Part shown: piece by piece, positions 855 to 64,000 of the stretch
How the letters are laid out: every line of letters starts with the position of its first letter
Numbering within the stretch: the stretch's first letter is position 1
Notes under the pieces: generated by a model
What the model saw: only the letters and a program-made list of their open reading frames with translations
Database searches by the model: none
Told to the model about the DNA's origin: nothing
Translations under genes and position numbers: made by a program
DNA from: an uncultured bacterium
GTDB lineage: Bacteria > Omnitrophota > Omnitrophia > Omnitrophales > Aquincolibacteriaceae
Assembly (NCBI GenBank): GCA_964434115.1
Contig: CAYSSX010000001.1
Location: forward strand, 397,911 to 461,910
Reading direction: 5' to 3'
Length of the DNA: 64,000 nucleotides

Positions 855-859
855 TCGGT

Positions 860-3824: not shown

Positions 3825-3840
3825 AACCGGATTTCCTTGA

Positions 3841-4224: not shown

Positions 4225-4262
4225 AGCCTTTGACAAAGCCGGGAAGGTAGCCCGCAAGGGGT

Positions 4263-5685: not shown

Positions 5686-6567
5686 ATGTCAGACGTCATC
5701 GAAAACAAGAACCTTTATCCCCTGCCGGTGAGACGTGTCCGCTGGGTCGGCATTGTGTTCTTTGCCGTGATTCACGCGGTGGGGATTATCGGAGCGCCGC
5801 TGTATATGATTTACCACGGCGTCAGCACTTCGGAATGGATTCTTTTTTTGACCTACACTTCGCTGAGCGGCATGGCCATTACCATGGGTTATCACCGTCT
5901 CTTTGCCCACGCCACTTTCAAAACCGGCGCTGTCATCCGCTTTCTTCTTCTTTACTTCGGAGCTTCCACCTTTGAGCAGACCGCGCTGAAATGGGCCTCC
6001 CAGCACCGCCAGCATCATCAGTTCACGGATACGGAACGCGACCCTTACAGCATTCAAAAAGGGTTCTGGTATGCGCACATGGGCTGGATCATTTTGTGGA
6101 AACACAAAGTCAATTACGACATCGTCAAAGACCTGAGCAAGGACGCCCTGACAAAACATCAGCACGAATATGAAGGGGTCTGGGCCGTGGGAAGCGGCAT
6201 TGTCGTTCCCCTGATCCTTGGCGCGCTCACCGGGCACATCCTCGGCGCGTTTATCCTGACCGTGTGCCTCAGGCTTGTGATCGTGATGAATTCTGCGTTC
6301 TTCATTAACTCTTTCGCCCACACCTTCGGGTCACGCCCTTACGACAAAACGATTTCCGCGCGCGATCACTGGCTGGGAGCTTTTCTGACCAACGGCGAGG
6401 GCTATCACAATTTTCACCACCGTTTTCCTTCCGACTACCGCAACGGCGTGAAATGGTATCACTGGGATCCCAGCAAATGGCTTATTTACGCGCTTTCTAA
6501 GGTGGGGCTTACCTGGGATTTAAAACGCACTTCCGACGAAAAAATACGCTACGCAGAATCGCTGTAA
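5686..6567 (+). CDS. acyl-CoA desaturase (stearoyl-CoA delta-9 desaturase family)
   Basis: Three histidine boxes are present (HRLFAH, HRQHH, HNFHH) together with transmembrane helices. Start MSDVIENK at 5686 is preceded by an AAAAGGGA ribosome-binding site. The listed ORF 5569.. begins further upstream in the same frame. Confidence 0.85.
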   Translation: MSDVIENKNLYPLPVRRVRWVGIVFFAVIHAVGIIGAPLYMIYHGVSTSEWILFLTYTSLSGMAITMGYHRLFAHATFKTGAVIRFLLLYFGASTFEQTALKWASQHRQHHQFTDTERDPYSIQKGFWYAHMGWIILWKHKVNYDIVKDLSKDALTKHQHEYEGVWAVGSGIVVPLILGALTGHILGAFILTVCLRLVIVMNSAFFINSFAHTFGSRPYDKTISARDHWLGAFLTNGEGYHNFHHRFPSDYRNGVKWYHWDPSKWLIYALSKVGLTWDLKRTSDEKIRYAESL

Positions 6568-6574
6568 GCGCACC

Positions 6575-22600: not shown

Positions 22601-25600
22601 CCGGCCTCGTCTTTATGCTCGATAAACAACCCTTCGTTGAGGCCTTCCACAAGGCTGAATGTTTTCTCCATCTCGTTTCCGCCGTCAAGGGTATAAAGCA
22701 CCTTCAGCGTAGCTTGGTTCGTTGTTTCAGGAATATCGCTCGTGATCTTGATCGCGGGCGGAATTGTGTCGCGGCGGATACTCACCACCACTTCGGACTT
22801 GTTTCCCGCGTTATCCACGGCTGTGATCGTGTGCCGGTTATCGCCTTCCTGATCCAGCGAAACCTTTAACTCCTTAGCCTCGCCATCCAGCAGGTACTTC
22901 ACGATCTCGCTGAGGCGATTGCTCAAAGAGACATGCTCCACACCTGAAATTTTAGGCGCGATGGTATCACGCGTAATCACAATGCGGATTTCGGTCTCGT
23001 TACCCGCTCCATCCACTTCTTTAATGACATGACGGTTTTCGCCTTCCTGATCAAGCGGAACCTTCAACTCCTTGGCCTTACCGTCCACCAGGTACTTCAC
23101 AACCGCGCTATCCTGGTTGGTCAAGGACACGTGTTCCAGCCCGGTAATTTCAGGGGCCTTGGTGTCTCTTACCACTAGAAGTTCGATGCGGCTTTCATTC
23201 CCGGCCTTATCCAGCGCCGTGACCGCGAGCTTGTTATCCCCTTCGTTCTGGAGCGCGAATTCCTTACGCATGGCTTCGCCATCCACGGTGTAGCTGACCA
23301 CAACGCTCATCTGGTTGGTCAAAGACACATGCTCAATGTTCGCGATTTCAGGCGCAATCGTGTCCAGCGTTACCTTGAATTCAAACAGGCCGATATTCCC
23401 CGCTGCGTCCACGACCTGAATTTTAAGTTTGTTTTCACCCTCGGTTAAATCAAAATGCGCGTGAAGAATTTCCCCGTTGGCGCCTGTGGGATCCAAAACA
23501 TAATCCACCACCAGGTGTTTCTGATTGGTCAGAGCCGGAATTTCGGAAACCACTTTAATCTGCGGCCCGGCATTGTCCATGAGCACAGAAAGGACCCGCT
23601 CGGAAATATTACCCGCTTCGTCCTTGGCTTCGATCCGGAGTTCATTCTTTCCAGCCGCGAGCTGGAAGGTTTTCTCCATTTTGACCCCATCCGCCGTGTA
23701 AATCACAACCAGACTCCGCTGATTCGTGACTTCCGGAACATCACTTAATATCTCAATCGCGGGCGCCTGGGTATCGCGCACCACGATAAGCGCTATTTCG
23801 CTTTTGTTTCCCGCCTCGTCCGACGCGGTAATCAAAAGTTCATTTTTACCTTCGTTCGGGAGATCAAACGCCTGCTCTCTCGAAACACCGTCCAGCAGGT
23901 ACTTCACCACGGTCTTCAACTGATTGGTTAAAGACACATGCTCCACGTTTGTGATTTCGGGGGCTTTGGTATCCAGCGTGACGTCAAACTCGTAAAAGCC
24001 AATGTTACCCGCCTCATCCATGGCTTCAATCTTGAGTTTGTTTTTGCCTTCCGTTAATTTAAACTCCGCGCGGCGTTTCTGCCCATTGGACATTTGCGGA
24101 TCCACAATGTACTCAACAACAAGCTGCTCCTGGTTAGTCAGGGACGGAATCTGGGAAATCACCTTGATCACCGGCGCCTCATTGTCCATAAGCACCGCGA
24201 AATTCATTTCCGCGGCATTGCCCGCTTCATCCTTGGCCGCAATTTGAAGTTCATTCATTCCCGGCTTGAGTTCAAAACGCTTTTCCATTTCCTTTCCATC
24301 CACTTTATAGAGGACGGACAGGACCTGGGCGTTTGTGATTTTAGGAATCACACTCGTAATCGCGATTTCCGGAGCCTTGGTATCCCGGACAATCTCAATC
24401 ACAACTTCGGTCTGGTTCCCGGCTTCATCCGACTCCGTAATCACGTGCCGGTTCTTGCCTTCCTGATCCAGCGCGAGCTTCAATTCCTTGGCCTTTCCAT
24501 CCACCAGGTACTTCACAAGCGCGCTGAGCTGATTGGTCAAGGACACATGCTCGACACCCGAAATTTCGGGCGCCTTCGTATCCAATGTTATTTTGAATTT
24601 ATACGAACCCTTATTCCCTGCCGCATCCATGGCATCAATCGAGAATTCGTTCCCGCCTTCTTTCAAATCAAATTCGGCCTTAAGAACGGCACCCGTGGCG
24701 GAATTGCCATCCACCAGATAATTCACAACAAGATGCTTTTGGTTTGTAATCGACGGAATCTCGGAAATCACGCGGATGACCGGCGCCACATTGTCCATGA
24801 TCACAAAAAGACTGAGTTCCGCGGCATTCCCTGCCTCATCCTTGGCCGCTAGGCGAAGCTCGTTTTTTCCGGGCGCGAGCTCGAACTTCTTTTCCATCTC
24901 TTTTCCGTCCACGGTGTAAAGCACGGTCAACACCTGGGCGTTCGTAATTTGAGGGATCTCGCTCTTGACCGCAATTTCAGGCGCCTTTGTGTCACGCCGG
25001 ATCATAAGCGCTCTTTCGATCTTGTTCCCGGCTTCGTCTGAAGCCGTAAGCACAAAATGGTTTTCACCCTCTTCCGGAAGTTCAAAGGTCTGTTCCATGG
25101 GGATCCCGTCCAGCAGGTACTTCACCAGCGCCTTGAGCTGGTTGGTCAGGGACACATGCTCGACGTTTGTGATTTCGGGGGCTTTGGTATCCAGCGTTAT
25201 TTTAAATTCATAAACACCGACATTGCCCGCTTCATCCTTGGCTTGAATCGTGCGGGTGTTTGGGCCTTCCTCTAAATCAAACTCCGCGCGCAGTTTTTGG
25301 CCATTGGTCATTTGCGGGTCAATCACATACTCCACCACAAGGTGTTTCTGGTTGGTCAAAGCGGGAATCTGGGAAAGAACCCGGATCACAGGCGCCTCAT
25401 TGTCCCGGAGCACCCCGAAATTCATGACAGACATATTCCCAGCCTCGTCCTTGGCCGTGATCTGAAACTGATTCATTCCGGGCTTAAGCTCAATCTTCAT
25501 CTCCATGTCTTTTCCATCCACAGCATAGAGCACGGTCAAAACCTCGGCATTGGTGACTTTAGGAACATCGCTCCTCAACTTGATCACAGGCAGAGTGGTA

Positions 25601-28071: not shown

Positions 28072-28260
28072 GATTGAGATCCCTCTCTGTCTTCCTGGAA
28101 TAATTTCGATTTCCATCACCTGCTTAACAACTTTTAACAGCCTATTAATAAGTCTGTTTTAAAACCTTAACACCACATTCCAAGAGATGCAAAAAAGAAG
28201 CAAAAAAAGAGCAAAAAATAGCAGCAAAAACAGTCTGCATGTTATGAATGTATGTTTAAG

Positions 28261-30830: not shown

Positions 30831-30874
30831 CCGAAAATAAGAACTTTTCGGCTTTGGTACCCGGTACCTTTTTT
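30831..30874. terminator. bidirectional terminator between two convergent genes
   Basis: Hairpin CCGAAAAtaagaacTTTTCGG (30831-30851), then palindrome GGTACCcGGTACC (30856-30868), then TTTTTT (30869-30874), which overlaps the stop codon of the minus-strand ATPase gene. Confidence 0.5.
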
Positions 30875-33203
30875 ACACATCAGCTGCCCCGAAATACATA
30901 TCTTTAAAACTCAAACGGGATGTATTTAAACCATATTTTTGAAATTTATATCTCATAAAGGCAGACATTTTATCCTCGTGAGTTGATAAAAATATCTGTC
31001 GGTCAGAAAATTCATTCCTTAGCAAATCAACCAAACTCGATATGTTTAACTCATCAAGCGTCTGAACAGGATCATCAATAAACAACATTTTATTCTGAGA
31101 GTATCTTTTATTTAGAGTTAAAGTAAAAGCTAAAATCAAAACCGCTAATTGCCCGGAACTCATTGTGAAAATTGCATCATAGGATTTCTTGGGGTCGGGT
31201 AAAAACCTAATGCCATTTTTATCAGAAATAAATAACCCCATCCCCTCTTGGCAGTCCTGAACAATCCGCCCCGAATATAAATGAAATAATATTTCAATAT
31301 CAGCAATAATTTTTCTTTGATACTCCAAAAGGGATTTCTCGTAAATCCTCTTAAGCTTATTTAGCCCATCCTTCATCTTTGAGGCATTCTCGAAGCGCCC
31401 CTGACTTTCATCATATTCTCTCTTTCGATCTTTTAAAGATTTACTCTGATGTAATGAATACTGCCATTTAATGTACTCTTTTTTCTCATCAATATCTTTA
31501 ATACTTATTTCCCTAACCAATTCTGATTTCTCATTAAAAAATTTCAGAAAAATGTCGGCAAAATACGGCTTTATCTTTGTCGCGTCTAAAGGTCGCTTTT
31601 GTTCTACTAATGCTTTTTTTAGAGATGCTAACTTTGAATCCAAATTCGATTTGGGCTCATCCAAATCCTGAACAATAATACCCTTTTGACGCAATTGCTC
31701 ACCAATAGCTATAAGTGTAGATTGATTGCGAACCGCAGCTTGAAGCCCAGCTACAAAAACCTCATCAATGGGGTTGCTAATTAAATAATCATTCAACATT
31801 TTCTTAATGGGGATAATGAACTCGGCCTCGAACCTTTCAACCAGTGATTTTAAATCTTTACCGGATTCTTCCGTTAATTTTCGAAAGCGATTCTGTTGAA
31901 CTTCAATTTGAAGCTTTAATACATCTAATGACACCCAGTCATGTCCGCACATCGGGCATTCTGTTTCTTTGCTTAATTCCGTAAAAGCAGTAAATATTCG
32001 AGCGAATGAGCTTCTGGAGTCTTCTAACTTAGCCACAATTTCTGAAAATTTATTTAGTGACGCGGATTGCTCAGCAATATTTTGCTTTACGCGATCATAT
32101 GCTTTAAAATCAATTTGATGAGATAAAACAGATTCAACCCTTGCTAAAACCACATTCTTGTCCAACGCAAATTTTAAGGTACCCTTATCAAACTCCGCCA
32201 AGATTCTTTTGATCTCCTGACGAATACTCAATTTATTCACATAAAGTTCAACATCATTTAAATGCTTCGAATACAAAATTATTTGTTTTAGAGAGGCCTC
32301 CTGACCGATCAAACCATCTAATTCGCGGTTCCTTTTCTCCTGTTCGAAAATATCAATATTACCTATAAGTGATTTAACTTTTTCCAACAAGCCATCTTCG
32401 CCAATCCAGCTAGCATACTGACCCTCTTTAAATTGCACTTGTTGTCTATCCCAATCAAAGTCGCCCCACGCGAAAAGCTTCGCGTATGCCACCTCGCGAA
32501 TATCACCTAACATCTCCGCCTCAATCGCTTCTATTTCTTTTTTTAAGATTTCTAGTCGGCTAGATTCAGCAGCGCCGCACAGTTCGCCGATCTTCGAAAT
32601 CGAATCTTTAATTTTATCTACTTGATTTTGGAAGCTAAGAGTATTGAACAAATAATCAATAGCATCTTTTCTTTCTCGATCTTTACATTTCAGCAAAGCA
32701 ATATTCTCTTCCTGCTCTACGTAATGGAGAAAACGAAAATTCTCACGGTAATTTAACCCTAACAACTCTTTCAAATAATCATTTTCATTCTTTACCAAAT
32801 TGCCTTCTGTAGCTTCAAAAGCTGTCAGTTCATATAATGGAGAGACGAATTCAGATATCCTCGTCTTTTGAGATAGCTCCAAACGAGTACTCTTCCTCAT
32901 CAATATTCTATCCTTACCATTAGCTTCGATTACGGCTTTGATAATAAGGTCACCGTCCTTGCGCCTACTATTTAAATAAGGATTTTCAGTAAAACTCTCA
33001 CGCCCATCTGTTGCAAGCTTGGCCCATTCTTCATACCTACGAATTTTCCCAGTAAGGAGTAGCTCCATAGCGTCAAAAAATGTGGTTTTCCCAAAGCCAT
33101 TCGGACCATCAAAAATAATAAAGTCCGAATCGTTAAGGTCAACCGAAAACGTTTGAAAAACCTTAAAATTTTCTATGTGAAATTTTCTAATTTTAATGCC
33201 CAT
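30873..33203 (-). CDS. SMC/Rad50-like ABC ATPase with a long coiled coil and a central CPxC hook (LmuB-like, Lamassu/ABC-3C-type defence ATPase)
   Basis: Walker A GPNGFGKTT; ABC signature MSSGQ; Walker B MLFIDDP; H-loop STHE. About 500 aa of coiled-coil sequence lie between the head halves. ETECPMCGHDW is encoded at about 31935-31967, at the midpoint, like a Rad50 zinc hook. The preferred start is MGIKIRKFHIENFKVF at 33203; the listed ORF starts at 33218. The gene is low in GC. Confidence 0.75.
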   Translation of the reverse strand: MGIKIRKFHIENFKVFQTFSVDLNDSDFIIFDGPNGFGKTTFFDAMELLLTGKIRRYEEWAKLATDGRESFTENPYLNSRRKDGDLIIKAVIEANGKDRILMRKSTRLELSQKTRISEFVSPLYELTAFEATEGNLVKNENDYLKELLGLNYRENFRFLHYVEQEENIALLKCKDRERKDAIDYLFNTLSFQNQVDKIKDSISKIGELCGAAESSRLEILKKEIEAIEAEMLGDIREVAYAKLFAWGDFDWDRQQVQFKEGQYASWIGEDGLLEKVKSLIGNIDIFEQEKRNRELDGLIGQEASLKQIILYSKHLNDVELYVNKLSIRQEIKRILAEFDKGTLKFALDKNVVLARVESVLSHQIDFKAYDRVKQNIAEQSASLNKFSEIVAKLEDSRSSFARIFTAFTELSKETECPMCGHDWVSLDVLKLQIEVQQNRFRKLTEESGKDLKSLVERFEAEFIIPIKKMLNDYLISNPIDEVFVAGLQAAVRNQSTLIAIGEQLRQKGIIVQDLDEPKSNLDSKLASLKKALVEQKRPLDATKIKPYFADIFLKFFNEKSELVREISIKDIDEKKEYIKWQYSLHQSKSLKDRKREYDESQGRFENASKMKDGLNKLKRIYEKSLLEYQRKIIADIEILFHLYSGRIVQDCQEGMGLFISDKNGIRFLPDPKKSYDAIFTMSSGQLAVLILAFTLTLNKRYSQNKMLFIDDPVQTLDELNISSLVDLLRNEFSDRQIFLSTHEDKMSAFMRYKFQKYGLNTSRLSFKDMYFGAADV

Positions 33204-33900
33204 TTTGATCACCTTCAAAAAACGGCCATAACAATTTGTAAAATTCGCTTGGCTTCATATTTTTTATATCACCCGATGAGACTTTATCGAGTACCGTCAT
33301 TAGCGATTTATTAACGTCTAGCATTCCATCTTTAGCCAAGGCCTTGTCATGCTCCTCAAGTAATGATTGCAGCCCTTGAGACTCACCAATATTAATTTTT
33401 ATGAAAGGCAATTTAATTGCTAATCGATAGATTAAAGATTGCCATGTTTTTACATAGGGATCATTTTTATAGTCATCAAATATTTGCTTAGAAACAATGC
33501 CGTCCTCTATGAATTTCGCGATGTCTCTTTCTGCAATTTGGTTTTGTAATTGCTGCAACTCTTTAGCAGCATAACCCAAAACATACTTTTTAAAAAAATA
33601 CGGGTCTTCCTCTATTTTCATTTTATTTTTTTTAAACTGTTCGCGCGGCACGCTTCCATCTGTTTCCCACAGCACCAACATCGAAAGATTTTTATCAACT
33701 CCAGGTTCAGAGCAAATTTTCTTACACTCGTTAAAATTAAAAGCCTGTTGCTCTAAAACCGAATCGATTTTGTCGGTTACTTTTATTACAAGCCAATACT
33801 GTTCGCGATTTTCGTTGGCACTCTCACAGAAAAGTCCGTTTTTAAATTCGAAAGTTTTAAATCCGTACCGCTCGAAAAGGATTTTTGTCAGCTCAAGCAT
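33193..33900 (-). CDS. small protein encoded between effector and ATPase (LmuC-like/middle component), function unknown
   Basis: 235 aa. It overlaps the upstream gene by 8 nt and the downstream ATPase by about 11 nt, consistent with a three-gene operon. It is low in GC and has no catalytic motifs. Confidence 0.5.
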   Translation of the reverse strand: MLELTKILFERYGFKTFEFKNGLFCESANENREQYWLVIKVTDKIDSVLEQQAFNFNECKKICSEPGVDKNLSMLVLWETDGSVPREQFKKNKMKIEEDPYFFKKYVLGYAAKELQQLQNQIAERDIAKFIEDGIVSKQIFDDYKNDPYVKTWQSLIYRLAIKLPFIKINIGESQGLQSLLEEHDKALAKDGMLDVNKSLMTVLDKVSSGDIKNMKPSEFYKLLWPFFEGDQNGH

Positions 33901-35176
33901 TGATAATTCCTTTCGCTTCAGCCAAAGGGATTAATGCGATTTTTTTCCATAATGTAATGCGATTATATTCGCTGGCTTTTTGAGAGTCATTTTTTGCTGT
34001 ATCTAAGACGTGAGGGGCTTTATCGGTAATAGAATCCACTTTTATATCGGTTGTGATTAGATTATCTCTTTCATAGCTAAGTCCCAAATCTGTTCGCAGG
34101 GCATTTTGAATGATTTTTTCACAAATAGCTGCATCATGGCTTGGACCGGCTTGAATAGCTGTCGGATAGTAGCGCTCAGATGCGCTCAAACATTCAAATA
34201 CGGATTTAGCTTCTTTAAAATCTAGCTGTTTAAGCTCGGCTAAGATTTTAAAAAAAGCACCCTGCACTTCCGATTGGATTAAAGTGTGGTTATGATAATC
34301 CGTTATCGAGTCAAATTTTATTTCTCGATGAGGTGTTATATTTTGAATGAAGGTCACAATGCTTTTAGTATCTAATTTTTCTATCGTCTCAAAGTAAGAA
34401 GCCATTTTTTTACAAAGTTCAGAATCGCTAAACTTTTCACAAAATTCCAGGTAATACCTGCGAAAATCCATTCGAATCAAATATAAAAAATATTTAGCAT
34501 CGCCACTTTGACTTAAGTTAGCATTCAAAATTGATGTAAATTCGGTCAGGTTTATTTTTTCTCGAAAAGCAACGGCGGCCATACTTCCTTTACTTTTTTG
34601 ACCCATCGCATGAATTTTCAAAACCCTGTCGTGGACAAGTTCAAACAAGAAGACCTTAACCTTCTGAATATAAGCGCTGTCACATCTCCAAGACTTTTCA
34701 GGTTCTGGAGAATGTTCAGAAAAATACTTCCTCACTTGTTCTTCTATTTTTGAATCAATGCCATCGACAGGACATTCATACCTTTCCTCATACTTGTAAA
34801 CCTTGACGGGGGAGAATTCAGATTCTATTTCACTAATAGGTTTGTTCGTAATCTCATTAGCCAAATGAAAAAAGGCGCGATCACAACCGTATTCAGAAGC
34901 GCGATTTTTTAATTTTTCAAAAGCACTATTTCCAGCCGAATCGTTATACCCACTAAAAGGTCCTTTTGCATGCGCTTTCACTTGGTGAAGAGATATTATT
35001 TCGTTTTCTTTTTTCAAAAGAGCAAAATCCTCTAAAGAATCTAATTGGAGATAGCAATCTTCCTGGGGGCGTTCGCACAAGGTCTTGATGACGTGATATA
35101 TAGCAACTTTCCCTTGATACACATAACCGCTCCATGAAGGAATTGCGGTATCTGGGAAGGCGGAGGCTTCGGGCAT
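33893..35176 (-). CDS. LmuA-like effector with an N-terminal Cap4-type (DUF4297-like) PD-(D/E)xK nuclease domain
   Basis: The N-terminal roughly 90 aa read SWSGYVYQGKVAIYHVIKTL...LQLDSLEDFALL...IISLHQVKA, which fits the GxxYQ ... E.(E/D)D ... QxK pattern of Cap4/LmuA nuclease domains. The roughly 330-aa C-terminal region is of unknown function. It lies 3 nt downstream of the preceding gene. Confidence 0.55.
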   Translation of the reverse strand: MPEASAFPDTAIPSWSGYVYQGKVAIYHVIKTLCERPQEDCYLQLDSLEDFALLKKENEIISLHQVKAHAKGPFSGYNDSAGNSAFEKLKNRASEYGCDRAFFHLANEITNKPISEIESEFSPVKVYKYEERYECPVDGIDSKIEEQVRKYFSEHSPEPEKSWRCDSAYIQKVKVFLFELVHDRVLKIHAMGQKSKGSMAAVAFREKINLTEFTSILNANLSQSGDAKYFLYLIRMDFRRYYLEFCEKFSDSELCKKMASYFETIEKLDTKSIVTFIQNITPHREIKFDSITDYHNHTLIQSEVQGAFFKILAELKQLDFKEAKSVFECLSASERYYPTAIQAGPSHDAAICEKIIQNALRTDLGLSYERDNLITTDIKVDSITDKAPHVLDTAKNDSQKASEYNRITLWKKIALIPLAEAKGIINA

Positions 35177-46038: not shown

Positions 46039-49000
46039 TTAAGCAGCGGTTTCAACAAGGCGGTTCTGAAGAACGGCTTCGGCAATGAAGGCGGCCATGC
46101 GGATTTTGAAGGAATTCCCGGTAAGGGAACTTCCGGGAAGGATCTCCTGGATACGGGCTTGTAAAACCTGCCTTTGCGCCAAAGGCTCCCCAATGCCTTT
46201 TATTAAAGAAGCAGCTTTCAGAAGCGCGGGCAAAAGCAAAGCCGCGGCCGCGAGATCATCCTCGGCCAGGGTCCCGGCATCCAGAGAAAAGTTCGCGCCC
46301 AGGAGTTCCAGGGCCGGGTTGCCTTCATGGAGCACGGCCACCCCGTAGTCCTGGGCCTTGAGGTATTCCTGCACCCCTTCCGGAGCCACGGGCTTGAAAA
46401 GTTTTTGAAGATTTCCGTTTTCAGCAAGGTCCCGGATTTTCGCGTTCTCTTCCGGAGTAAACCCGTTGGCCTTTTGCTGAAGAATCCGGCCAATCTCCTT
46501 GAGCGTGCTTTCATCTCCGGTAATGGCCGCGGCTTCCTGCCCGCTTTGCCGGACGTGCTCAAGCGCGCCGACAAGAAGGAAGAGTCCTCTCGGGGAATGT
46601 CTCCCCCAGTTCAAAAGCCAGCTGCCGTCAAAAAGAATTTTCCCTCCGCTCGCCGCCCCTTCATCAAGCCAGCTCTGGTAAGCCCCGGAAGTCTTAAGCG
46701 GCATCACCGCATGGCCCTCGGACAGAAGGCTGATAATCTGTTCCGGAACAATACCCGCGGTCTCCGCGTACACGGTCCGGCCCAAAAGGTTCCCAAGCAG
46801 AGACGTGAGCGCGGGCACAGGGCGCGTTTCCATATAAGAGAGCGGGAGAATTTCCGCGCGGACTTCACGGAAATAGGAAAGCGCCGTGGGTGTGGGTGCC
46901 TCCAGCCGAAGTTCAGAACGGACCGCGGAAGGAAGCTGAGCCTGGGAAGACTCTAAAGTTCCGTCCGGGGCCAGTCTCGCCGAGGCTGTTTTAAAGACCC
47001 GGTAAAGAAAAGGCATCTGGTTCCCCCACGATGCGCCGGGAACATAAAGGGGTGGGCTTTCAATGCGGAACCCTCTTTCCCCGGCCATGCCCTTGATCTT
47101 CTCGATCACAGGGAGGTACTGATCGGGAACCAAAACACTCCCCACCAAATAGCCGCCATCCGCGACATCCCGAAGAAACCGCTCAATCAACTCTTCGCGG
47201 TTTCTCACGTTCGGATCATCCAGCACATTAAAAAACATCACGATCTTCTGGGAGGATTCTTCCACCGGAAATTTTAGATAATCCTGCGCAGGGTGAACGG
47301 TGTAGGCCCCGGATACGCGTTCGAAATCCTTGCGGTGATTCGAGACAAACATATTCTCGTTTTCCTGAAACCGGGGGTCCAGCGATACGGAATCAACCCG
47401 CGCGCCAAGCAGCGCGAGCGCGATCCCGTAGAAAGGTTCTGACCCTGTACCCACGGACAATACGCGGTCACCGGGTTTAATGCCAAACTGGCGGGCAAAC
47501 AAGGCGCGCTGCTGAAAAGCCTCGACCCGGCTGTTTTCCCAGGGCGTGAGCGCGTCACCCTCTTTGTTCTCCGTGATACGGAGCTCGGAGCGGGTTTTCC
47601 TGCCTCTCTCCGGAACACGGTAAACATACGTCGAAAGCCTGCCGTGCGGGATCACTTTTTCAAGATCCAGAAAAGCAAGATCCTCATCCGTCAATTCCTG
47701 ACGGAAGTGGATGACAAGCCGCGAACCGGGCGGAAGTTTTTTGAGTTTGGCGAGAAATTTTTCTTTTTCAAACATTTGGGCCGCGGAGCTGAGGTCAAAA
47801 TAGTAGTACACGTTTTTCGAAGGGTCTTTGACGTTACCCGCCCCGGCAAGATCCGAGGTCATGTAATTCCTTTTCACAATGTTGACTTTGAGCGGATTAA
47901 AAACAAGCAGCAGCCGGGGGTCTTCAGAAAGAGTCCTTAGTAAATGACGGCTTACGGTAAAAAGCCCGGGGTCGCTTTCATAGCCTGTGGCTTTCGCGGC
48001 CCCCAGCGCGGCCGCGAGAAAAAGAACCACCCCGCTGCCGCTTCCAAGATCAATGACATGCTCCCCGCCCTGCAAAATCTCTTTGAGAATCTCTGCCGCC
48101 ATAAAGGGGTCCGAAGGAATGAACATGCCGTCCTTGGTTTCTTCAGCCCGCGCGTCGAGCGGAAACTGTTCATCCTGAAGTTTGGCCAAAGCCGTGAGAA
48201 ACACAAGTTCCAAACCGTTAAAAAGGGGCTTTGTCCCGCTTTCTTCCGCCCGAAGCTCAGCGCGGGCCGTGGACGCAGCAGTCCCGCTCTCCGGGTCCCG
48301 GGCAAACACGTACAAGGCCTCATCCGCCGCGCCATTCCCGCGGATATAATTCGTAAAGGGATAATCCCGGGGCGCGTGCGGAAACATTTTGACGAGGGAA
48401 TAACCCCAGCGTTTAAACTCGCCGATCACGCCTTCCCGGTAAGCCCAATCAATTTCATGAATCCGAAGCAGCACAACACTGCCCCGGGGGTCCGCAAGAT
48501 GCACGGCCTCATCCACGATGGTTTCCAGGGCTTTCTGATTGTCCAGATAAGGGGCATTCATAAAAAGAACCTGCGAAAGGAGTTCCTCGGAATGGTTCTT
48601 TACAATGCGCGGCGCTAATTCCTGCTGAACGGTTCTCAATTCATATCCCGCTCCCGTTTCCAGCGGCGTCAAAACGCGCAGATGATCTTTGTCCAAAGCC
48701 TGCGCGGACGCCACAACCCCTGCCAAGGAAGGGTCTGCAGTCATCAGGGACTGAAGAAAACTTCCGTCACTGGCCAAATCAAAGACTTTCAATTTCTCAC
48801 TGCCGGAAATTCCCGGGAAAATTCCCTGCAGGAATTCCTTTGTCGTCAACGCGGATAAATCCGTCCACTCCCTGAGGGCTTTCAAATTCACGGCCGAAGG
48901 CTCCGTCTCTTCAAGTTTTTGGAGAAACGCGGGTTTTAAAACCTGATTTAAATCAACGGGCTTTCCGATTTTCAGGGCCTTCAAAATCACGGGCAGAGAC

Positions 49001-52000
49001 TGCCTTGAGCGCAACCCTCTTAAACTGTCCATCTCATCACGCACCATCGCAGCGTTTTCCCAGAACGAATGCGCCTGAAAAACCTGCGGATAAACATGGT
49101 AATCCGCCAGCCCGGCTTTAACATTGCCAAGGGCAGGAGCGTTTCCATTGGCATTAAGCGGGTAACTGAAAAGAGCGGTCACCGGGCCTTGATATCCGTT
49201 TTGTCTCAGCTGAGCGACAACCTCTTCAGCATTAAGGCTTTTGTCCTCGATAAGAGGATCAAAGTACTCGTGGTCCGCCACAACGACCAGGTCAAACTCC
49301 CGGCTCAGATCGCGCCACGGTGATGATTTCACCTCGAATAGATGCTGATAAAATGATTCCGCGGAGCCGAACTCAATCACCTCAGCACCTTCATAGAGAT
49401 TCCGGCCGAGCACATGCCGCGTCACTTCCACCACGCGCAGCACCGGTTTTTCCGGATCAAAAAGGGCCTGCCGGTTCAATCCCGTCAGATGTTTCTTTGC
49501 TTTGTAGAGCTGATCAAGAAGATAGCGGACAGCCCAGCCAAGGGTTTCCGGGTCAGAGCTTTCGCGGCTGTCAAAACGCTTCACCACCTCGGAGAAAACA
49601 CTGCGGCCGGCTTCCCAATTTGCGGCATTCCGGTAAACCTCTTCCCCGGCCAAGGCCTCCCATTCTTTCAAACTTTCGCCAAAAGCCCGTGGAAGTTCCT
49701 CATCAGAATTTCCGGTCTCAGACCATGTCTTCAAACGTTCCTGACTGTTTTCGAGCCGGCGGATGGCTGAATTCAGCTTTAACATCGCGGCTTTCCAGGC
49801 ACCTTCTTCCATGGGCGGAACTTCCTTGAGATCCTCTTCTGATGCTGCGGGAAGATTCACAGGCGCTTTCTCTTCACCCGGAAGGCTGGTCAAAAGAAGC
49901 GTCCTTCCGCCGGGGATGTCTCTGACGGAATACCGGAAACGGGGGAACTTTGCCCCCTCCCGGTGAATGCGTGAAAAAACTTCATAAGCAATATCCTGCT
50001 GAACGGTGAAGAGAAAACTCTTCTGCTTTAAATTAAACTGCGCGACATTAAAAAGAAGCACGGAGCTGATCTCGCCCGGATTGTGAAGAGCTTTGTTAAG
50101 CCTCTTCATGAAATCAAAATAGCCGTAAAAACTGTCGACGCTTCCCGATCCCTCCAAAAATCTCAGTTCAGAGCGGCTGGCGCGGCGGACATACAAGTTC
50201 TGCTGAAGAAATGTTTCTGAATCCAGAATTTCCTGAGGATTTTCACTGGCATAAAGAGTCTTGAAAAGCGTGCGCGCGCGGGCCGCGGTCTCTTCTGAAA
50301 AAAGCGCACCGGGGATGGTGCTATAAACCCGGGAAAGCTGTTCAAGCACGATTGTTTTCCTGCGCGGGTCCGTGAGATCGAAAAGAGCGCTATGGCTCCC
50401 CACAAAATCATTGCCGTCCGTACGCACCAGCGGCCGGTCAAGATTGCCGGTCATGGTCTGGCGGTGTTTTTCCGCTTCCTGAATCAAATCGTCCCGGCCT
50501 TTTTTCCGGGCCTCCGCAATTACTTCCTCCAAATGCACGAGCGTGGCCGATTTCCAGTCCTGACCGCTGAACCCCTGAAGGCGGTGAAGTTCAGCTTCCA
50601 CTCCTGGATTGAAAACCGCGGCGAGGCCATGTTCCGAAGCCCAGGCTTCTGCCTGTGCTTGGGTCATCACTACCCTGCCAAGACTTTTATCCGCTGCCAT
50701 GCCGTAAAACTCGGCCAAACTTTCACTGCCAGGTGTCAGAGCCGTCATAGTAAGACCTGTCCTGACCAGGAACCGCGGGGTGGCCGCGTATTTAACAAGA
50801 AAGTCCATCAGTACACGGGAAACACCGCGAAGATCCCCGTTTTGTCCGATGTTGCGGTAGTAATTTTCAATCTGCGAAATGCCGAGACCGTAGGTCCATT
50901 CCCGGAGAGGTCCGTCGAAACCCGTGTACTCAGGCTGAATGCCCACGAACCCCTCAAGGCGCTCTTTTTGATCTGTCACAGAGACAAGGCCGACACTATA
51001 GGGGCTGATGTAGCTGAAACGCGGCAAGCGGTCTGCCCAAACACCTTTCCTGGCCCATTGTTCCTGCCAGGCTGTGTCTTGATTAAGATCAGCCTTCCAA
51101 TCTGAAATGAAGTGAAGGTCTTTTTCAGGATCAAGGCGCCTCAGATAAAAACGCGTGCCCGAAGTTTTGGCTTTGTTCAAAGCCTCGTTTCCAAAATAAG
51201 CCGTGATTTCGTCATCCGCCAATTCCAGGGCTTCTGGAAGGGCCTGCGTAAACAATTCGTCAAAGGAACGGAGTTCAGACCTCATGGGTTTAAACTCGTA
51301 AAGCACGGCACGCTTGATACCGTCGGAATACGGCACAGAAACAAAGGACGCTGAAGCCGGCCCCATCTTTGAGGTTTTCACCATTTCCATGGCAAAGGGT
51401 TCCAGAAAGGGAACGTTCGAAGTCATTCGTCCCGACACCTGGACATATTCCGGAACGCTGAAAAGAACACGGCCCGGCTCGGAGCTTTTCAATTGCGCGG
51501 CCAGTTTGAACATTTTCTCAATCTTGTTCTGCTCATAGGTCGGCGGCGCCTTTGGAGAACCCACGGCCATGGCACGGCTGGGCGTTACCACATCGGTCAT
51601 CAGGAGATGCTTGAACTTTCTGCCTTCAAGGGTCTTTGCAGTTTGAGGGTCCGCAAGATCGCCCTCCACAATTTCAAAACTTCCGCCGGCCTGACGAATC
51701 AAACTCTCGAGGCGCTGGGCGTGAGCGCGAAGAGCGGTGACAGACTCAGGCCTTGATTCCACGGCCACAACCTTGGCTCCGAGCATGGCGGCGATAAGCC
51801 CAAGGCCCCCGCGTTCACCCGCGCCAAGGTCAATCAGGGTGTCCCCTGGCTGGATGTTGAGCGCCCGAAGCGCTTCAATGCCGCGCTGAGTGACGAGGTC
51901 CGCGCTGTAAACATCGTCCGCCTTACCGTCAAAAATCCGGTTCAGCAGGGGCCATTCAGGCCTGATGAGCAGCGCCGCATCCTGGCCTTCCTGCTTCGCG

Positions 52001-55000
52001 TAAAGTCTTTTGACTTCCTCTTTCACTTCCTGTGAAAAGGTCTGGCGGTAGAGATCCGCGGCGGTTTCAAACCCGGGCTGGGATTCCAGCAGGCTGAAAA
52101 TATAATCCAGAGCCGCGTCCGCGCGCGCAATCCAGAGCGGCGCGGGGTTATCGGAAAATAAACTGATTTTGGCATAGCGGCCGTGCCGGTAGCGCGGATC
52201 GTTTAATAAGGGTTTCGTCCCGGTCTGCAGGACCCGGTAATAACTTTCCATATCTTCCTGCGCATATCCGAAAAGGGTCCCGTAAAACCAGTGCGCCTTT
52301 TCAAGATTCGCCGGAGACCCGGAAGCCATCTGCGAATGAATTTTCATCAGCAGTTCGTGGGTTTTTGAAAAAAGCGTGTTGATGTCACCGCCGCGCAGGG
52401 CCTGATCCATGGAATCAAGAGCCGCATTATCTTCAGTCCCCAAAACTTTTTTCTGTGTCAGCCAACCGCGGTTTGAAAGAATTTTTACAGCGGCCGGCAG
52501 AAGCGCGATGAAATGGCTTTCGTCCGCGTAAAACATGAGCCGTGACCCGGCCAGAATTTCCTGGGCATTGATGGACGCGATCATTTCTCTGGGGTTCGGG
52601 GCGCCGTCTTCCACGGCGTAATAAAGCGGCTTTACGCCCAGCAGTACGAGCAGAAGGTTGGGGTAAAGAAACTTCTTTTGATTCTCTTCACTGAGTTTTG
52701 AAAAAACACTGGCAAACCAGCGTGCCTGATACTGGATGCGGCTGCCTTCCTGCTGTCCGAACACCTGAAACATCCGGTCTTCCTCCGGTGTGCGGAGTTC
52801 GGAACGGGCACCGGGTTTTGTAAACGTCAGAACATCCGGCGTGGACACAAGACCCATGGCCCAGAGGCTCTGGGGAACCGCCTGCCCTGTTTTGGCATCC
52901 AGCTGCCACGCATCCATAATGGGCGCGAGAAACTTTTCCCAGATCGGGACAAACTTTTCCCGGTTCGCCTGTTCGGGCAGGATCTCAACAATCAACTGTC
53001 CGGATTCTTGCAGCGCTCCCTTGACCCAGTCCCAGAAAGGCGCGGAGTCGAGAATCTGCGGAACATAGGCCCAGACATTTTTCAAACGAATGGTTCCGAA
53101 CTTTTCATCCTGCCCGATCATCGCCAGCATGTCCTGACGGCGCACTTCGACCTGATCCGCTTTAAGGATCTTCGCAGCTTCTTCAAGGTATGCGGCCGCG
53201 AAATAAGAGTTATCCACGAAAATGAATTTCCGTGTCTTGGGAAGGTTTTTGAAAAACACGGCAGCATAAATACCCGAAGCAAAATCAAGATACGGCAGGG
53301 TTTGCCCGTCTTGCCCCGGCAAAGTCCGATTGAGGTTTCCGCTTCGTTCAGCGTCCGGAATTTCCCCCCTTGCCGTAATCCGGCCCATAAGCTCCAGGAA
53401 TTCCCGCGCCTCAGCGTTTGCATCGGCCTGCTGGGTAAACGCAAAAAGGGCGGCGGCCTTAGGTTCCGGAACAAACGAGAACTCCGGATTACCCTGTTTC
53501 ATCAAGGTCATGGCAAGTTCGTGGGAGGCTGCCTTGTTCAGCTGTTTTAAATAAGCCGCGGCATAGTCGAGCAGGCTGTAAGCGCGCGCTTTCAGAAGTG
53601 TTTCCAGTTGGGGATCCAGCGTTCTCAAAATCGCTTCAGCACGGTCTTCGTCCGCACTTCTTAATTCACTGCGTTTTTGCAGATCCAGGTTTTTAAGATT
53701 GAAATACATCTGCGTTCCGGAACCGGAAAGCTTGACCGGCGGTTCCGAGGCGTCCGGGTCCAGATTGCGGGTTTGATTCCAGTCTTTCTGAAGATTCTCA
53801 AGAAAATCAGGAAACGAAATGTCCATACGGACCCATTCCACGCCCTTGCTTTTGATCCAGGACAGGATGCCCCGGAGCATTTCCTGAGATGGAACACCCG
53901 GATAACCGGCGCTTTCGATGGCCATAATCTGACCCCCGGAATTCTGGCGGATTTCGAGCATGACGCGGTCTTTTCCTTTTTGAACCAGCTCGGAATTCTC
54001 ATCCACAAAATCAAAGCTCAGGTTGTCACCGATGTTCCAGGCCCGAAGCTTCTGGGTCTTCAGGTCATTTGAAAGCCAGTCCCTTTTCCATTCCTGGAGC
54101 GTTTGCCAGGCAAAGTCACTTTCGGGTAAGCCGTCAGGCCAGAGTTTGTCCAGATCCCCGCTTCTCAGTTCGCTGCGCAAAGTGCTAAGCTCGATAGACT
54201 TCTGGCTCATCACAGACTGGATGTAGTTTTCCAGATCCCGCTTCTCGGAAGCATGCAGCACCCGGCCTCCGCGGTTCACATAAAAGGTGTCATTGACCAT
54301 GGCCGGATGCGTGGACACCGGCGCTGCCACGAGATTAATGCCGCGCTGATTGAGAATCAGCGACAGCGCGTGAAGCAGGCCCAGCCGGTTGGCGGTTTTG
54401 AGATTAAAAACACTAGCGCGGGTTCCGTAAATCTCCGTATCCTCGAGAAACTGGACTTCGGTTCCCACCGCCTCAATAATTTTCTCAGAAACATACGGCC
54501 GCTTGCCGCGCTCAAAAAGGGCTTCGACCGAAGGAAGGGTTCCAAGAAAAACATCCCGCATGTCCCGTGTCATCTGGTCCTGCATCAGGATATGGGCATG
54601 TGCATCCGGGTAGTCATCGTGAAAAAAGCCCTGAAAGGTGTCGACCACTTCCCCGTTGGTCAGGGTGCGGATATCGGCTTCCTCAATATCAAAACGGTGA
54701 TTCAGCAGAACGCCCGTTGCTTTTTCAAAAAAACCCTCGCTGTCGGCGGCGGCCCCCACCACGATTTCGTACCCGCGTTCATAGGTGCGCGAAAACTGAG
54801 GATTGAAATAAATCACAGGCGCCGGGTTCCCGGTGTCTTTCTGATAATCGAGGTGCAGAAGAAAAATGAGACGCTCCGCGGCCTGTTCTTCGGTGTAATC
54901 CCGGATCTGGTCCATGGAAAAAGCCGCGAGAAGCCGCTCAAGAAGATAATCAAACGCGCCGTCATCCGCCGCAGCGCCCTTTGCTTTAGCAATCAAACCG

Positions 55001-58000
55001 TCACGAACGCTCTCAAATTTGCCTTCATCCACAACCGCAACATTCTTGAAATAACCGCGTATCGTCTTCGGATCTAATTCTGAAAGAATCCGGCGCAGGC
55101 CCCCGCGGTTTTGTTCTTTATACTCGCTCCACTCTTTGTGTGTTTTAGCATGCGCCTGCCTCTGGATGTCTTCAATATGCCGGGATCGGTCCGGTTCCGA
55201 AGTGTCGAAATAATCCTCCAGCATGGCATAGATGTAATTCAGGCGGTCCAGCACGTCCGGACTCATGATCGGCGCCCAGGGATTTACGGAATCACGGTCG
55301 GTGAGGGATATCAGATAAAGCAGCTTCAGACGTTCCTGTGAAATTCCCGGATCCAGCGCGAAATGTTTCATGAGAACAGGCAGCTTGGCTTCAAAGCGGA
55401 CATCCTGCATGCGGGCAAAGGCGTTCAGCACCATGTGATCGCGCACCACCCATGCAGCATTTTCGATTTTGTCCGCAGGCACGCCCAGTTCTTTCAGGCG
55501 CACCGGAACAATATCGCGGGAGGACACAATCGCGTGGTCCGGTTCTACGGGCGTTTTGGACATGCGTTTGCCCAGATCATGAAAAAGCAGGGTCAGGCGG
55601 ATTTGCATCATCTGGTCTGGACTTAAGCCCTCAAGAACCGCCCGGCCTTTCTGAAGCTGCTCGTCCTCCGTCACGCGCAGGTCATCCAGTTTTTTAAGGT
55701 TATACAGCGTGTGCTGTCCCACGGTAAAAGCGTGGATATTAAAATTCGAGGGAATATCGCGGACATTCCTCAGTTCGGGAACAATGGCTTCGAGAATTCC
55801 GGACCGGTACATTTCCCAAAGCGCCCCGGTCACGGACTGCTGCCTCGAAAGCAGCTCGAGAAGGTTTCTGCCCAGTGCCTGAAAAGCCGCGGACGGAGTT
55901 TCCTTCACTCGTTCCTGATCGGCCCAGGCCTGCAGTTCCGGCTGAAAACGAAGAAGGGCAAAGCGGATCGAACTGCTGAGCGGAACTTCAAATTCCAGAG
56001 AGCGCAGGTACACGGAAACAGCACGCGAAGGATTGGCGCGGAAATACTCCAAGGCATCCGTGCCTGAGCGCAATCCGATCTGTTCCCGCTCCTCACGGAC
56101 AAATCCCCGAGACAGGGAAAAATGCAGCGAGGTTTCCTTCTGCAGTTCGAGGCCGTCTTCCACATCATGAACCGGCGCCGCAGCTGCAGCCTGCTTCAAA
56201 CGGGCCATGGCTTCCACCAGAACCGGGACGCTTTTGAAAGTTTCAGAAGCCGCATGGTAATAAGCCCGCAGGAATTCGTCGCGATCCGGAAGACCCGTGA
56301 GCTTGGCATCCGAATGGTATTTTCCGGCGGATTTTTCAAGAACCGCAAAAGACTCCAGGAGGTTCTTTTCAATGTCCTCATCAATAAGCCCGGATTTTTT
56401 GAGTTCGCCGAGAATCATTTCGGTTTCCTTGCGGGAGGAATATTTTTCCGGACTAATCGCAAGGCCGCGGTCACTAAGAAACTCACGCGCCGCCTCTTTT
56501 AGAAAATCAAATTCATAAATACTCCCCGGCCCGGTCTCCATGTTCACATCCCGGAACTGCACCCCCAGATGGCCTTCCTCGGAATCCGGTTTGCCGCGCT
56601 GGTGCAAATAATGATTTTCATTCCACTCCCGAAGCGCCTCCTCAAACCTTAATTCAGAACGAGGGACACCCGGCTCCGTTTCGCCGGTCTGGGGCTGCGG
56701 GGTTTGAAGCGCGCGCTCTTCGAGCAGCAGCATTTGTTCATAAAGGGCTTTAAAACTCGCGTATTGGGGCAGATTGAAATCAACAAACCTTTCGGCTGTC
56801 TCAGCGTAATTCTGTTCCCGGAAGTAATAATCCAGCGGGCCGGCAAAACTGAAGGTGCTTAGCGGCGCAAAAAGTTCCTCCGCTCCAGCCTCGTTTCCCG
56901 CATACCCCTTCAGAAATTCAAGCTGGAGTTCCAGGACATTGTTCTGATCTTCATGACGCCGGAAATAGCGGACGCTTTTGGAAAGATCGATCCACCTGAG
57001 CATGGCCGCCATCTCCCGCCGTCCTTTATCATCAGAGGCTTGAATTTCGGATCGCTCGCGGGTGGTTCCCAAATCACGGATCACAAGGTCCTGAAGAGTC
57101 AGCTGATTCCAGTCTGCCCCGGGTTTGATTCCGAAGTTTTCAAAATGCGGAAAGCGGTGGTAATAACCGGCATCATGATAAAGGCGCATAAGCTGCCCCA
57201 AAGCCCGGGCAAACCTTTCAGCGCCTTCACGGCTTAAGGGCGTCATCTGGCGGGTTTCATAATCCGAGAGGTAGAAAACGAGTTTGCGGGCATCTTCATC
57301 TTCACTGTCATCATCCCGCTCCACAAGGGGCTGAATACGGCGGTCGGTGCCGCGCATCCCGATCACCACAAAACCCAGTTTCTGTCCGCTGAACACGGCA
57401 TCCTTGTAAAGGCCCACTGCAAGGGCTTTATCCGCATGAGATGAAAGGACCTCTGAGGCCTGCAGTTTTTGCAGGGTCGCCTTTTCACGCTGTGACGACT
57501 CTTCGCTGCTGCCTCCAAAGACTTTGTAGCCCTCTGTTTTTTTCCAAAAGCGGAGCACTCCGGGAGCCGCAGCTTCCACATCCACGGGAACAAAACCGCG
57601 CCCCTGTTCACCGTAGCCGATCCATGCCCCCTCCTGATCCACGCGCGGCCGGACTCCTTTGAGGCGCAGCGTATCGATCCCGTCAAAACTTTCGGAAAGT
57701 TTCAGATAAACCGTGCGGCCTTCAAGGGCGCTCAGCTCCCATCCCGACTCAGCCTGCTGGACTTCTTTCACATAAATTTTTTCCGGATACTGTTTCAAAA
57801 GCCCGCGAAGAACGTCATCGCCGCCGGTGATGATTTTCTCAAAAAGCTCCCGCTCCGTTTTGCGGGCGGGCACATCCGAGTTGAACCATTTCCAAAAGTC
57901 CTGATTGAGAGACTCCTCTTCCAGAGCATACCCCAGCGCCTGCTGGGTTCTCAGCTCCGAACGCGCCGGAAGAAACCGGTTCTTGAGATTCCGCTCGTCC

Positions 58001-64000: not shown

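Follow-up and report, generated by a model that had tools for sequence, protein, structure and literature searches.

The giant genes of Omnitrophota and of other ultra-small, host-dependent bacteria are a recognised puzzle: do their products work as one chain, or are they cleaved? Giants described from this phylum include the Archaeovorins and dockerin-type proteins of tens of thousands of residues, for which cleavage by C39 or S8 domains was proposed in a study that also states that information on cleavage points is absent (West-Roberts 2023, bioRxiv 10.1101/2023.11.21.568195), and the 'multi-enzyme metabolic cluster' proteins of at least 10,000 residues (bioRxiv 10.64898/2026.06.07.730766). 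In the text of the 2026 preprint, the words 'linker', 'motif' and 'junction' and the stem 'cleav-' do not occur. Here, a 64,000-nucleotide stretch of an uncultured Omnitrophota bacterium (contig CAYSSX010000001.1, positions 397,911 to 461,910; hereafter 'the window') was analysed for a giant gene whose product is punctuated by the pentapeptide RSELR. The protein resembles the described giants in its phylum, in the many enzyme domains (GNAT, methyltransferase, HAD and phosphoglucomutase) that such proteins carry on one polypeptide, and in the common occurrence of signal peptides. It differs in that it is below the 10,000-residue length of the 2026 catalogue (about 6,050 residues, within a family of 300-7,800), and in three elements mentioned in neither preprint, namely a TIKI-like N-terminal module (N-module), a C-terminal module (C-module) and an RSExR peptide at the junctions between the units of the chain, here termed cassettes.

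The giant is encoded by a single minus-strand frame that runs for 18 kb from its stop codon at 46039-46041 to the window edge without interruption. The initial annotation, made from the letters of this DNA, had described such a frame of at least 5950 residues leaving the window, and the measured length agrees with it. By comparison with an ortholog in locus L001, which is 78% identical, some 65-70 residues are missing upstream, for a full length of about 6,050; this N-terminal part, including a predicted signal peptide, would lie beyond the window. In L001 a hydrophobic, AxA-terminated leader is found just upstream of the window end, and a signal-peptide-like h-region is present in 134 of 151 relatives. 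The features of the giant gene, in order of translation, are as follows.

46039-64000, minus strand: giant open reading frame (ORF), 5,986 codons plus stop in the window, frame open at the window edge
62620-63999, minus strand: N-module, residues 1-460, modelled as a TIKI/TraB/ChaN/Ere-type alpha/beta core into which some 300 helical residues are inserted
62509-62619, minus strand: low-confidence linker, residues 461-497, with a predicted local distance difference test score (pLDDT) below 50 at 460-471 and 484-497
62494-62508, minus strand: RSELR motif 1, residue 498, kept in L001
61885-62493, minus strand: cassette 1, GNAT acetyltransferase (PF00583, E = 1.4e-6)
61870-61884, minus strand: RSELR motif 2, residue 706, kept in L001
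61312-61869, minus strand: cassette 2, GNAT acetyltransferase (PF00583, E = 8.9e-6), a repeat of cassette 1 with similarity beginning at the motif
61297-61311, minus strand: RSELR motif 3, residue 897, insertion point of two extra L001 cassettes
59452-61296, minus strand: cassette 3, four repeats of about 125 residues and a C-terminal helical tail, no Pfam or NCBIfam match
59437-59451, minus strand: RSELR motif 4, residue 1517
59377-59391, minus strand: RSELR motif 5, residue 1537, 20 residues past motif 4
57964-59376, minus strand: cassette 4, two copies of a repeat of about 230 residues (ERLEGF...YYRN.G.NGDL)
58627-58641, minus strand: degenerate motif ASELR between the two repeat copies of cassette 4
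57949-57963, minus strand: RSELR motif 6, residue 2013
56662-57948, minus strand: cassette 5, 434 residues, no match in Pfam or NCBIfam
56647-56661, minus strand: RSELR motif 7, residue 2447; the homology block shared with relative P0038 begins at residue 2442
54178-56646, minus strand: cassette 6, GlnD-like HD phosphohydrolase with an ACT-type C-terminus (TIGR01693, E = 6.5e-37, below the family cutoff)
54163-54177, minus strand: RSELR motif 8, residue 3275
53659-53673, minus strand: RSELR motif 9, residue 3443
52792-52806, minus strand: RSELR motif 10, residue 3732
51268-51282, minus strand: RSELR motif 11, residue 4240, start of the third copy of the 230-residue repeat
50161-50175, minus strand: RSELR motif 12, residue 4609; the block shared with relative P0100 begins at residue 4601
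48250-48264, minus strand: RAELR motif 13, residue 5246; the block shared with relative P0090 begins at residue 5245
47593-48249, minus strand: PrmA-like class-I methyltransferase cassette (PF06325, E = 1.7e-6)
47578-47592, minus strand: RSELR motif 14, residue 5470, pLDDT 35
46921-47577, minus strand: class-I S-adenosylmethionine (SAM)-dependent methyltransferase cassette
46906-46920, minus strand: RSELR motif 15, residue 5694, directly before the C-module, in a linker of about 40 residues with pLDDT below 50
46042-46905, minus strand: C-module, about 290 residues, the extreme C-terminus of family members, ending [SAM]-A

The in-window part of the giant contains RSELR 14 times and RAELR once, which matches the count of at least 15 given by the initial annotation (with 62494-62508, 59437-59451 and 59377-59391 among its examples). 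The amino acid composition predicts 0.04 sites, and in 2,000 shuffles of the residues the count averaged 0.05 and never exceeded two, so the observed 15 lie far outside a shuffled-composition control. The motif is also all-or-nothing: the only near-misses in some 6,000 residues are ASELR (residue 1787, between two repeat copies), RSEIQ and RIEKR. Motifs 4 and 5, at residues 1517 and 1537, are separated by only 20 residues.

A six-frame motif scan of the window located a second member of the same family, and the motif is therefore not a one-off of the giant ORF.

6575-12706, minus strand: second family member, 2,043 residues, with signal peptide, N-module, three motifs, a weak kinase-like stretch and a C-module
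10766-10780, minus strand: RSELR in the second family member
10397-10411, minus strand: RAELR in the second family member
7436-7450, minus strand: RSELR in the second family member, directly before its C-module

Residues 51-471 of this 2,043-residue ORF are homologous to the N-terminal 470 residues of the giant, the two N-modules being 21-26% identical. The kinase-like stretch shows weak protein-kinase similarity (E = 0.002 against CaMKIV), and no Pfam match to a kinase or HAD domain was obtained for the ORF. Together the two genes fill about 37% of the window. Across their 18 sites, serine is encoded by all six of its codons (TCN and AGY), leucine by five, and arginine by both CGN and AGR, whereas nucleotide identity in the 30 nt on either side is 0.28, which is the random value. 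Since the codons are fully varied and the flanks random, selection must act on the peptide, as had been proposed from the codon differences at individual sites.

The units that lie between the motifs largely correspond to those first described. Both GNAT domains exceed the Pfam cutoff, and the internal repeats, originally put at four of about 130 and three of about 190 residues, number four of about 125 and three of about 215-230. The GlnD-like assignment also stands, though its TIGR01693 match is far below the equivalog cutoff and covers the HD and ACT parts only. The proposal of at least three methyltransferases holds in part: two are supported by Pfam E-value, of which the PrmA-like domain alone is above the gathering cutoff (Methyltransf_23 scores 24.2 bits against a cutoff of 27), and the third is weak. 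Similarly, the motif had been placed at almost every domain boundary; it does part cassettes, but not every domain. The internal duplications of the giant begin at the motif.

Comparison of the giant with its relatives shows that the cassettes are the units of evolutionary change. In BLAST alignments of the giant against the family, 56% of homology-block ends fall within 30 residues of a motif, compared with 15% in position-shuffled controls (maximum 31%), so that predicted unit boundaries and motif do coincide. P0038 has only the GlnD-like unit in common with the giant, as a single block of 50% identity at a different position in the chain, and P0090 and P0100 contain several of the giant's units in a different order or copy number. 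The ortholog in L001 (3000-7695), which at 76-78% identity is the best match among the species-representative genome loci, has about 440 extra residues that make up two cassettes, each bounded by R[SA]ELR and one of them a third GNAT. This insertion sits exactly at the RSELR of residue 897 (window 61297-61311). The other motifs are kept in place in L001 while the adjoining linker residues diverge.

AlphaFold2 (AF2) models place the motif in flexible segments. In the model of residues 5470-5986, the methyltransferase and the core of the C-module, both with pLDDT of about 90, are joined by some 40 residues below 50 that contain RSELR. The N-module model (pLDDT 84) is folded over residues 1-460 and then disordered up to the first RSELR at residue 498. 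All three sites covered by AF2 models fall in segments of pLDDT below 50 between domains of about 90.

The extent of the family was determined with a 497-residue N-module query. A word-indexed search returned six relatives only, whereas an exhaustive HMMER profile search of 1.84 billion representative proteins showed the true family size, with at least 9,356 clusters (50% identity) at E <= 1e-3, of which 6,050 reach E <= 1e-30. In the best 150 matches the N-module lies at or near the N-terminus of proteins of 300-7,800 residues, and every motif-bearing ORF with an intact N-terminus has it. Pfam coverage of the cargo is sparse in the 12 relatives inspected; the matches are to GNAT, methyltransferases, HEAT, DUF218, glutamate dehydrogenase, 2-hydroxyacid dehydrogenase, cupin, phosphoglucomutase, HAD, PP-binding and HTH_8.

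In 152 relatives (448,000 residues), R.E.R occurs 1,114 times where 160 occurrences are expected, and R-[S/A/T]-E-x-R is the most frequent 5-mer in most of the top 150. Position 2 is serine in 65% and alanine in 17% of sites, and position 4 is leucine (30%), valine (20%), alanine (14%) or methionine (9%). The flanks are nearly uninformative, with small residues at -1 and +1 and an enrichment of acidic residues downstream. The first 450 residues make up 15% of all residues in these proteins, yet they hold 1.5% of the sites; the first motif follows the conserved GGFH sequence of the N-module by a median of 115 residues. Spacing between motifs has a median of 219 residues (interquartile range 114-412), and 11% of spacings are below 60. 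Species-representative genomes yielded 75 Omnitrophota loci, at which the density of sites in module-bearing ORFs is 2.33 per 1,000 residues. Other ORFs at these loci have 97 sites, of which 89 are in 12 large same-strand ORFs that are truncated or frameshifted giants, or members missed by a crude regular expression; once these are removed, about 0.03 sites per 1,000 residues remain, which is the random expectation. To judge from these sequences, the motif appears essentially confined to the N-module family.

The variant of the motif is a property of the genome. The metagenome-assembled genome JBMONI has RAE[LVA]R in all four of its giant ORFs, CAZIQJ favours RSEMR, JAUYMS has RSELR only and JAFGHI mostly RSELR; in the window genes position 4 is leucine at 18 of 18 sites. 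The variant-profile distance is 1.31 within genomes versus 2.11 between genomes, a difference that none of 5,000 label permutations reached. Because the two window N-modules have diverged as far as they have, the variant that they have in common does not stem from a recent duplication. A minority of relatives without any RSExR (P0129, P0139, P0148, P0120 and P0058) repeat [GA]ASLG instead, at 1.53 per 1,000 residues compared with 0.09 elsewhere and with the first copy just after the N-module, and one relative (P0006) repeats ARLA; the classes of motif exclude one another. Wholesale switches of this mutually exclusive kind point to a co-evolving reader, as opposed to a passive linker or a DNA-level recombination site, and it is highly probable that the motif is read by a protein partner that co-evolves with it. 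Separately, when the motif classes are aligned on their leucine, a common hydrophobic position is suggested, although this is speculative.

The 'conserved N-terminal module' of the initial annotation can now be assigned a fold. In the model, its alpha/beta core with a parallel beta-sheet superposes on solved members of the TIKI/TraB/ChaN/Ere group, from which the N-module is predicted to have a hydrolase fold of the TIKI/TraB/ChaN/erythromycin-esterase type. H20, E48, E102, R393 and H421 (in GGFH) are 99-100% conserved in 148 N-modules, and R393-D394 forms a conserved pair. H20, E48, E102 and H421 are located at the C-terminal ends of core strands and, from conservation and this strand-end position, are a candidate 2His/2Glu set. 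PMT, HopBA1, Bcr135, ChaN and the site-specific endopeptidase RRSP belong to the TIKI superfamily, whose active members rely on a 2His/2Glu set (PMC6254334). The N-module differs from the superfamily in its helical insertion of about 300 residues and in heading giant modular proteins, and superfamily membership is not shown by sequence: a search of PDB sequences with the N-module profile returned nothing, and sub-threshold matches to PF04187 (ChaN/Tiki) were found in three of 21 members, the best with E = 0.006.

At the other end of the chain, the C-module comprises the last 290 or so residues, begins directly after the final motif and is conserved in at least 46 of 154 members, the 2,043-residue ORF among them. 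Its alignment has no conserved histidine, cysteine or serine. Neither Pfam nor NCBIfam has a model for the N-module or the C-module. The very terminus (46042-46060 in the giant; 46 relatives) reads [S/A/M]-Ala-COOH, as in ETAA, EISA and GTMA, and resembles C-terminal recognition tags.

Nearly all named organisms among the 75 loci are Candidatus Omnitrophota, with several paralogs per genome, some in tandem, which fits the mention in the initial annotation of giant genes as a known feature of phyla such as Omnitrophota. The N-module family is thus Omnitrophota-specific and large, and no description of it was found in Pfam, NCBIfam or the literature searched. Members at L009, L012, L015, L019, L030 and at L039, L049 and L055-L057 occupy conserved syntenic positions; one syntenic group follows genes for ScpB, an aminotransferase, prephenate dehydrogenase, S1, FabF and LpxA, and another follows pyrimidine-biosynthesis genes. 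This conserved synteny with housekeeping genes indicates that the family genes are stable parts of the core genome and not mobile islands. A co-occurring protease had been proposed as a check on processing; the conserved neighbours (ScpB, S1, FabF, LpxA and pyrimidine genes) are housekeeping genes and include no dedicated protease or secretion partner.

Some database entries for the family are misleading. P0002 (L076 10001-20993) was considered as a stand-alone N-module, which would have been evidence for a trans-acting enzyme, and was rejected: it lies on a contig of 3.65x coverage, is followed by many short same-strand ORFs without Pfam matches and is probably a frameshift-broken giant gene, so that short 'family members' in databases call for caution. 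The public names of P0020, P0023 and P0038, which have 4,000-5,000 residues, each come from one cargo domain ('6-phosphofructokinase, partial' for a 5,129-residue protein, 'tRNA G46 methylase TrmB' and 'UTP:GlnB uridylyltransferase'), and such naming hides the common architecture.

The initial annotation had read the pentapeptide as a processing or recognition site. That it is a recognised junction signal is borne out, as it is conserved in orthologs, specific to the genome, restricted to the family and located in linkers; cleavage remains putative. In the model favoured here, the precursor would consist of a signal peptide, an N-module of 460 residues, a variable array of autonomous cassettes and a non-catalytic C-module, with R-[S/A]-E-x-R in a flexible linker ahead of each cassette. 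It would be exported by the Sec pathway and then cut at the pentapeptide into its cassettes by the TIKI-like N-module of each precursor, acting in cis and on paralogs. Taken alone, the proposal that the junction pentapeptide is a proteolytic processing site in an exported polyprotein has about an even chance of being right. Cleavage is favoured because the motif is strict, short, exposed, placed at cassette boundaries and uniform within a genome, because every precursor carries a hydrolase-fold domain with a candidate catalytic set, and because doubled sites 20 residues apart occur. Since motifs flank the variable array on both sides, both terminal modules would also be released if cleavage takes place.

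The N-module is the best candidate for the protease because it is always present in cis, is assigned to a superfamily that contains an endopeptidase, and has no other protease conserved nearby; this role is speculative and somewhat doubtful. Also speculative is a site of action for the released enzymes inside a host or prey cell, an idea made attractive by the presence of enzymes that need SAM, acetyl-CoA, ATP or NAD(P) on a Sec precursor in a phylum thought to be host-dependent. Put together, the proposal would be that thousands of Omnitrophota Sec polyproteins are autoprocessed by their TIKI N-modules at lineage-specific pentapeptides into enzyme sets acting outside the producer, and this full combination is rather unlikely to be correct in every part. 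The sets so released would comprise acetyltransferases, methyltransferases, kinase-like, GlnD-like and glycolytic-type enzymes, plausibly, if speculatively, at work inside host or prey cells.

Several observations weigh against autoprocessing. The motif class does not follow N-module similarity, and one variant occurs with N-modules that are only about 25% identical; a separate trans-acting factor would account for both observations at least as well. The catalytic residues of the N-module are equally conserved in members without RSExR. A TIKI fold does not imply a peptidase, because the same superfamily has esterases and a haem-binding protein among its members, and the fold assignment itself draws no support from a Foldseek search of the N-module against the PDB, which gave no significant match, or from Pfam and NCBIfam, where there is no match at E <= 0.01 and none of PF01963, PF04187 and PF05139 reaches its cutoff. 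No motif separates the four 125-residue repeats, and several cassettes of 430-830 residues hold more than one domain. Finally, it is hard to see where a Sec-exported precursor of 6,000 residues with SAM-, acetyl-CoA- and ATP-dependent enzymes would act.

The alternative that fares best is an uncleaved docking motif, in which a partner binds each linker in order to fold, assemble, tether or export the giant whole. Nearly all of the data cited for cleavage fit this too, including the disordered linkers, the selection on the peptide and the genome-specific variants, and the restriction of the motif to proteins with N- and C-modules is equally compatible with it. The alternating conserved side-chains of R-x-E-x-R would suit binding as an extended strand, and the C-module, lacking catalytic residues, could be the binding domain; other possible partners are the protein's own N-module, a chaperone, a surface receptor or a secretion component. 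However, a docking motif need not mark every cassette boundary or flank both terminal modules exactly, motif pairs 20 residues apart and spacings below 60 residues (11%) are more typical of redundant cleavage sites, and no candidate receptor is encoded in the neighbourhood. Docking without cleavage is accordingly judged unlikely, if still a serious competitor to a processing site.

Also unlikely, and next in rank, is cleavage by a separate protease encoded elsewhere and acting in trans, the N-module then having an esterase, anchoring or host-directed role. The observation that the variant is specific to the genome and not to the N-module, with modules of about 25% identity using identical RSELR, is readily explained in this way, as are the failure of the N-modules of ASLG-class proteins to form a clade and the conservation of the catalytic residues across differing motif classes. 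Set against this are the absence of a protease gene conserved next to the giant genes, the presence of the N-module in cis on every motif-bearing protein and the position of the first motif closely after it (median 115 residues after GGFH).

Post-translational modification of the serine or an arginine by a cargo enzyme, such as phosphorylation, is improbable. GNATs, methyltransferases and kinase-like regions abound in the cargo, and serine is the commonest residue at position 2, but the serine is dispensable: alanine takes its place at 17% of sites and almost always in genomes such as JBMONI. Moreover, ASLG and ARLA have no modifiable residue in common, and none of the cargo enzymes is present throughout the family.

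A passive by-product of cassette shuffling, either a recombination joint or a neutral linker with no reader, would account for duplicated cassettes that carry the motif at their N-terminal edge and for indels between orthologs that are bounded by motifs. This explanation is very improbable. Identity outside the motif is random and the codons inside it are diversified, so there is no recombination site at the DNA level; the motif is strictly kept while adjoining residues diverge, it precedes unrelated folds, and the genome-wide switches of variant and class require selection driven by a reader. An assembly chimera or mis-joined contig, with the repeated peptide as an artefact, is suggested by nothing other than the unusual length of the ORF and is excluded by the uninterrupted 18-kb frame, by colinearity with L001, to which 1,520 residues align at 78% identity, and, through the final 740-1,400 residues, with P0100 and P0090, by the same architecture in hundreds of independent assemblies and by the confident AF2 models.

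The remainder of the window encodes several unrelated features. Between 30000 and 38200 lies an island of low GC content (0.37-0.40 versus about 0.54 elsewhere) that encodes an ABC-three-component (ABC-3C) conflict system and is probably a horizontally acquired defence island; its ABC-3C genes are followed by a DUF2130 gene and then by a nucleoside 2-deoxyribosyltransferase-like gene.

30873-33218: SMC-like ABC ATPase of ABC-3C
33193-33900: MComp1 of ABC-3C
33893-35176: CTD1 of ABC-3C

Directly upstream of the 2,043-residue gene, at 13036-18840 on the minus strand, is a CusCBA-like heavy-metal efflux operon of the resistance-nodulation-division (RND) type, which encodes an outer-membrane factor, a membrane-fusion protein with a heavy-metal-binding domain and an AcrB-family pump. 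A minus-strand ORF of 2,833 residues at 19618-28119 contains bacterial Ig-like and cadherin-like domains (Big_13, Big_9, Cadherin_4/5 and He_PIG) and, with no relation to the RSELR family, looks to be a giant protein of the adhesin type; it has a single RSEIR, consistent with chance.

For the giants of this phylum, the present findings put forward, in thousands of proteins, a defined site and an enzyme as candidates that can be tested. The motif provides a rule for splitting giants into units for structure prediction and annotation, and it allows metaproteomes to be searched for junction-spanning versus junction-terminated peptides. Should processing be confirmed, a logic like that of polyproteins and MARTX toxins would extend to a whole bacterial phylum and the TIKI superfamily would gain a new role. 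If the whole proposal of exported polyproteins autoprocessed into enzyme sets is correct, cellular prokaryotes would have their first known consensus-site polyprotein strategy, and effectors would be delivered, or host metabolism reprogrammed, by a new route.

The motif itself has no evident precedent in the literature searched. A whole-word search for its variants returned PL7 alginate-lyase papers only, and a substring search for RSELR returned only the varSelRF software. In PL7 enzymes, R-x-E-x-R occurs together with Q(I/V)H and YFKAG(V/I)YNQ in a jelly-roll domain. A link to the PL7 R(S/T/N)E(L/V)R was rejected, as QIH/QVH and YFKAG are absent here and the motif lies in disordered linkers.

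Among known systems, the MARTX toxins are similar in being giant secreted proteins with conserved ends and, between them, unrelated enzyme or effector domains whose array varies from strain to strain, and a variable domain array between conserved termini is indeed present in the giant family. In MARTX an internal protease cuts the inter-domain linkers and so releases the effectors (PMC6254334). One MARTX effector, RRSP, shares the TIKI fold that is predicted for the N-module; in MARTX, however, it is cargo and not the processing enzyme. Further differences are that MARTX toxins use type I secretion and a loose Leu-X cleavage site, whereas relatives of the giant have a Sec-type signal peptide and a strict pentapeptide at which processing is putative. 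The terminal modules of the giant have no Pfam match, GGxGxD motifs are absent, no RTX or glycine-rich repeats were found, and none of 16 segments of the giant matches Peptidase C80 in Pfam. The giant is not a member of the MARTX family.

The polyproteins of viruses, such as those cut by picornavirus 3C and potyvirus NIa, are alike in that one ORF encodes many units with a short consensus peptide at the junctions and a hydrolase domain, in the giant a predicted one, in the same chain, and in that the consensus drifts between lineages and is uniform within a genome. Indeed, the giant family has the same peptide at its junctions, conserved between orthologs and uniform within each genome, as a consensus-site polyprotein would. 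It differs in belonging to a cellular organism, in its synteny with housekeeping genes, in its interchangeable and repeated cargo and in having a TIKI-fold candidate with putative cleavage in place of a chymotrypsin-like protease. In cyanobactin PatE and in fungal repeat proteins processed by Kex2, a short recognition sequence likewise recurs before every unit of a precursor that is secreted; those precursors contain short peptide units and are cut by subtilisin-like or Kex2 proteases, whereas the units here are folded enzymes of 100-800 residues. Modular giant proteins and autoprocessing multi-domain precursors are therefore rated as known kinds, and the idea of a polyenzyme was already in the 2026 preprint; the junction motif and the terminal modules are new, and the definition of the family, the junction signal and the candidate role for the TIKI fold are rated as the new elements.

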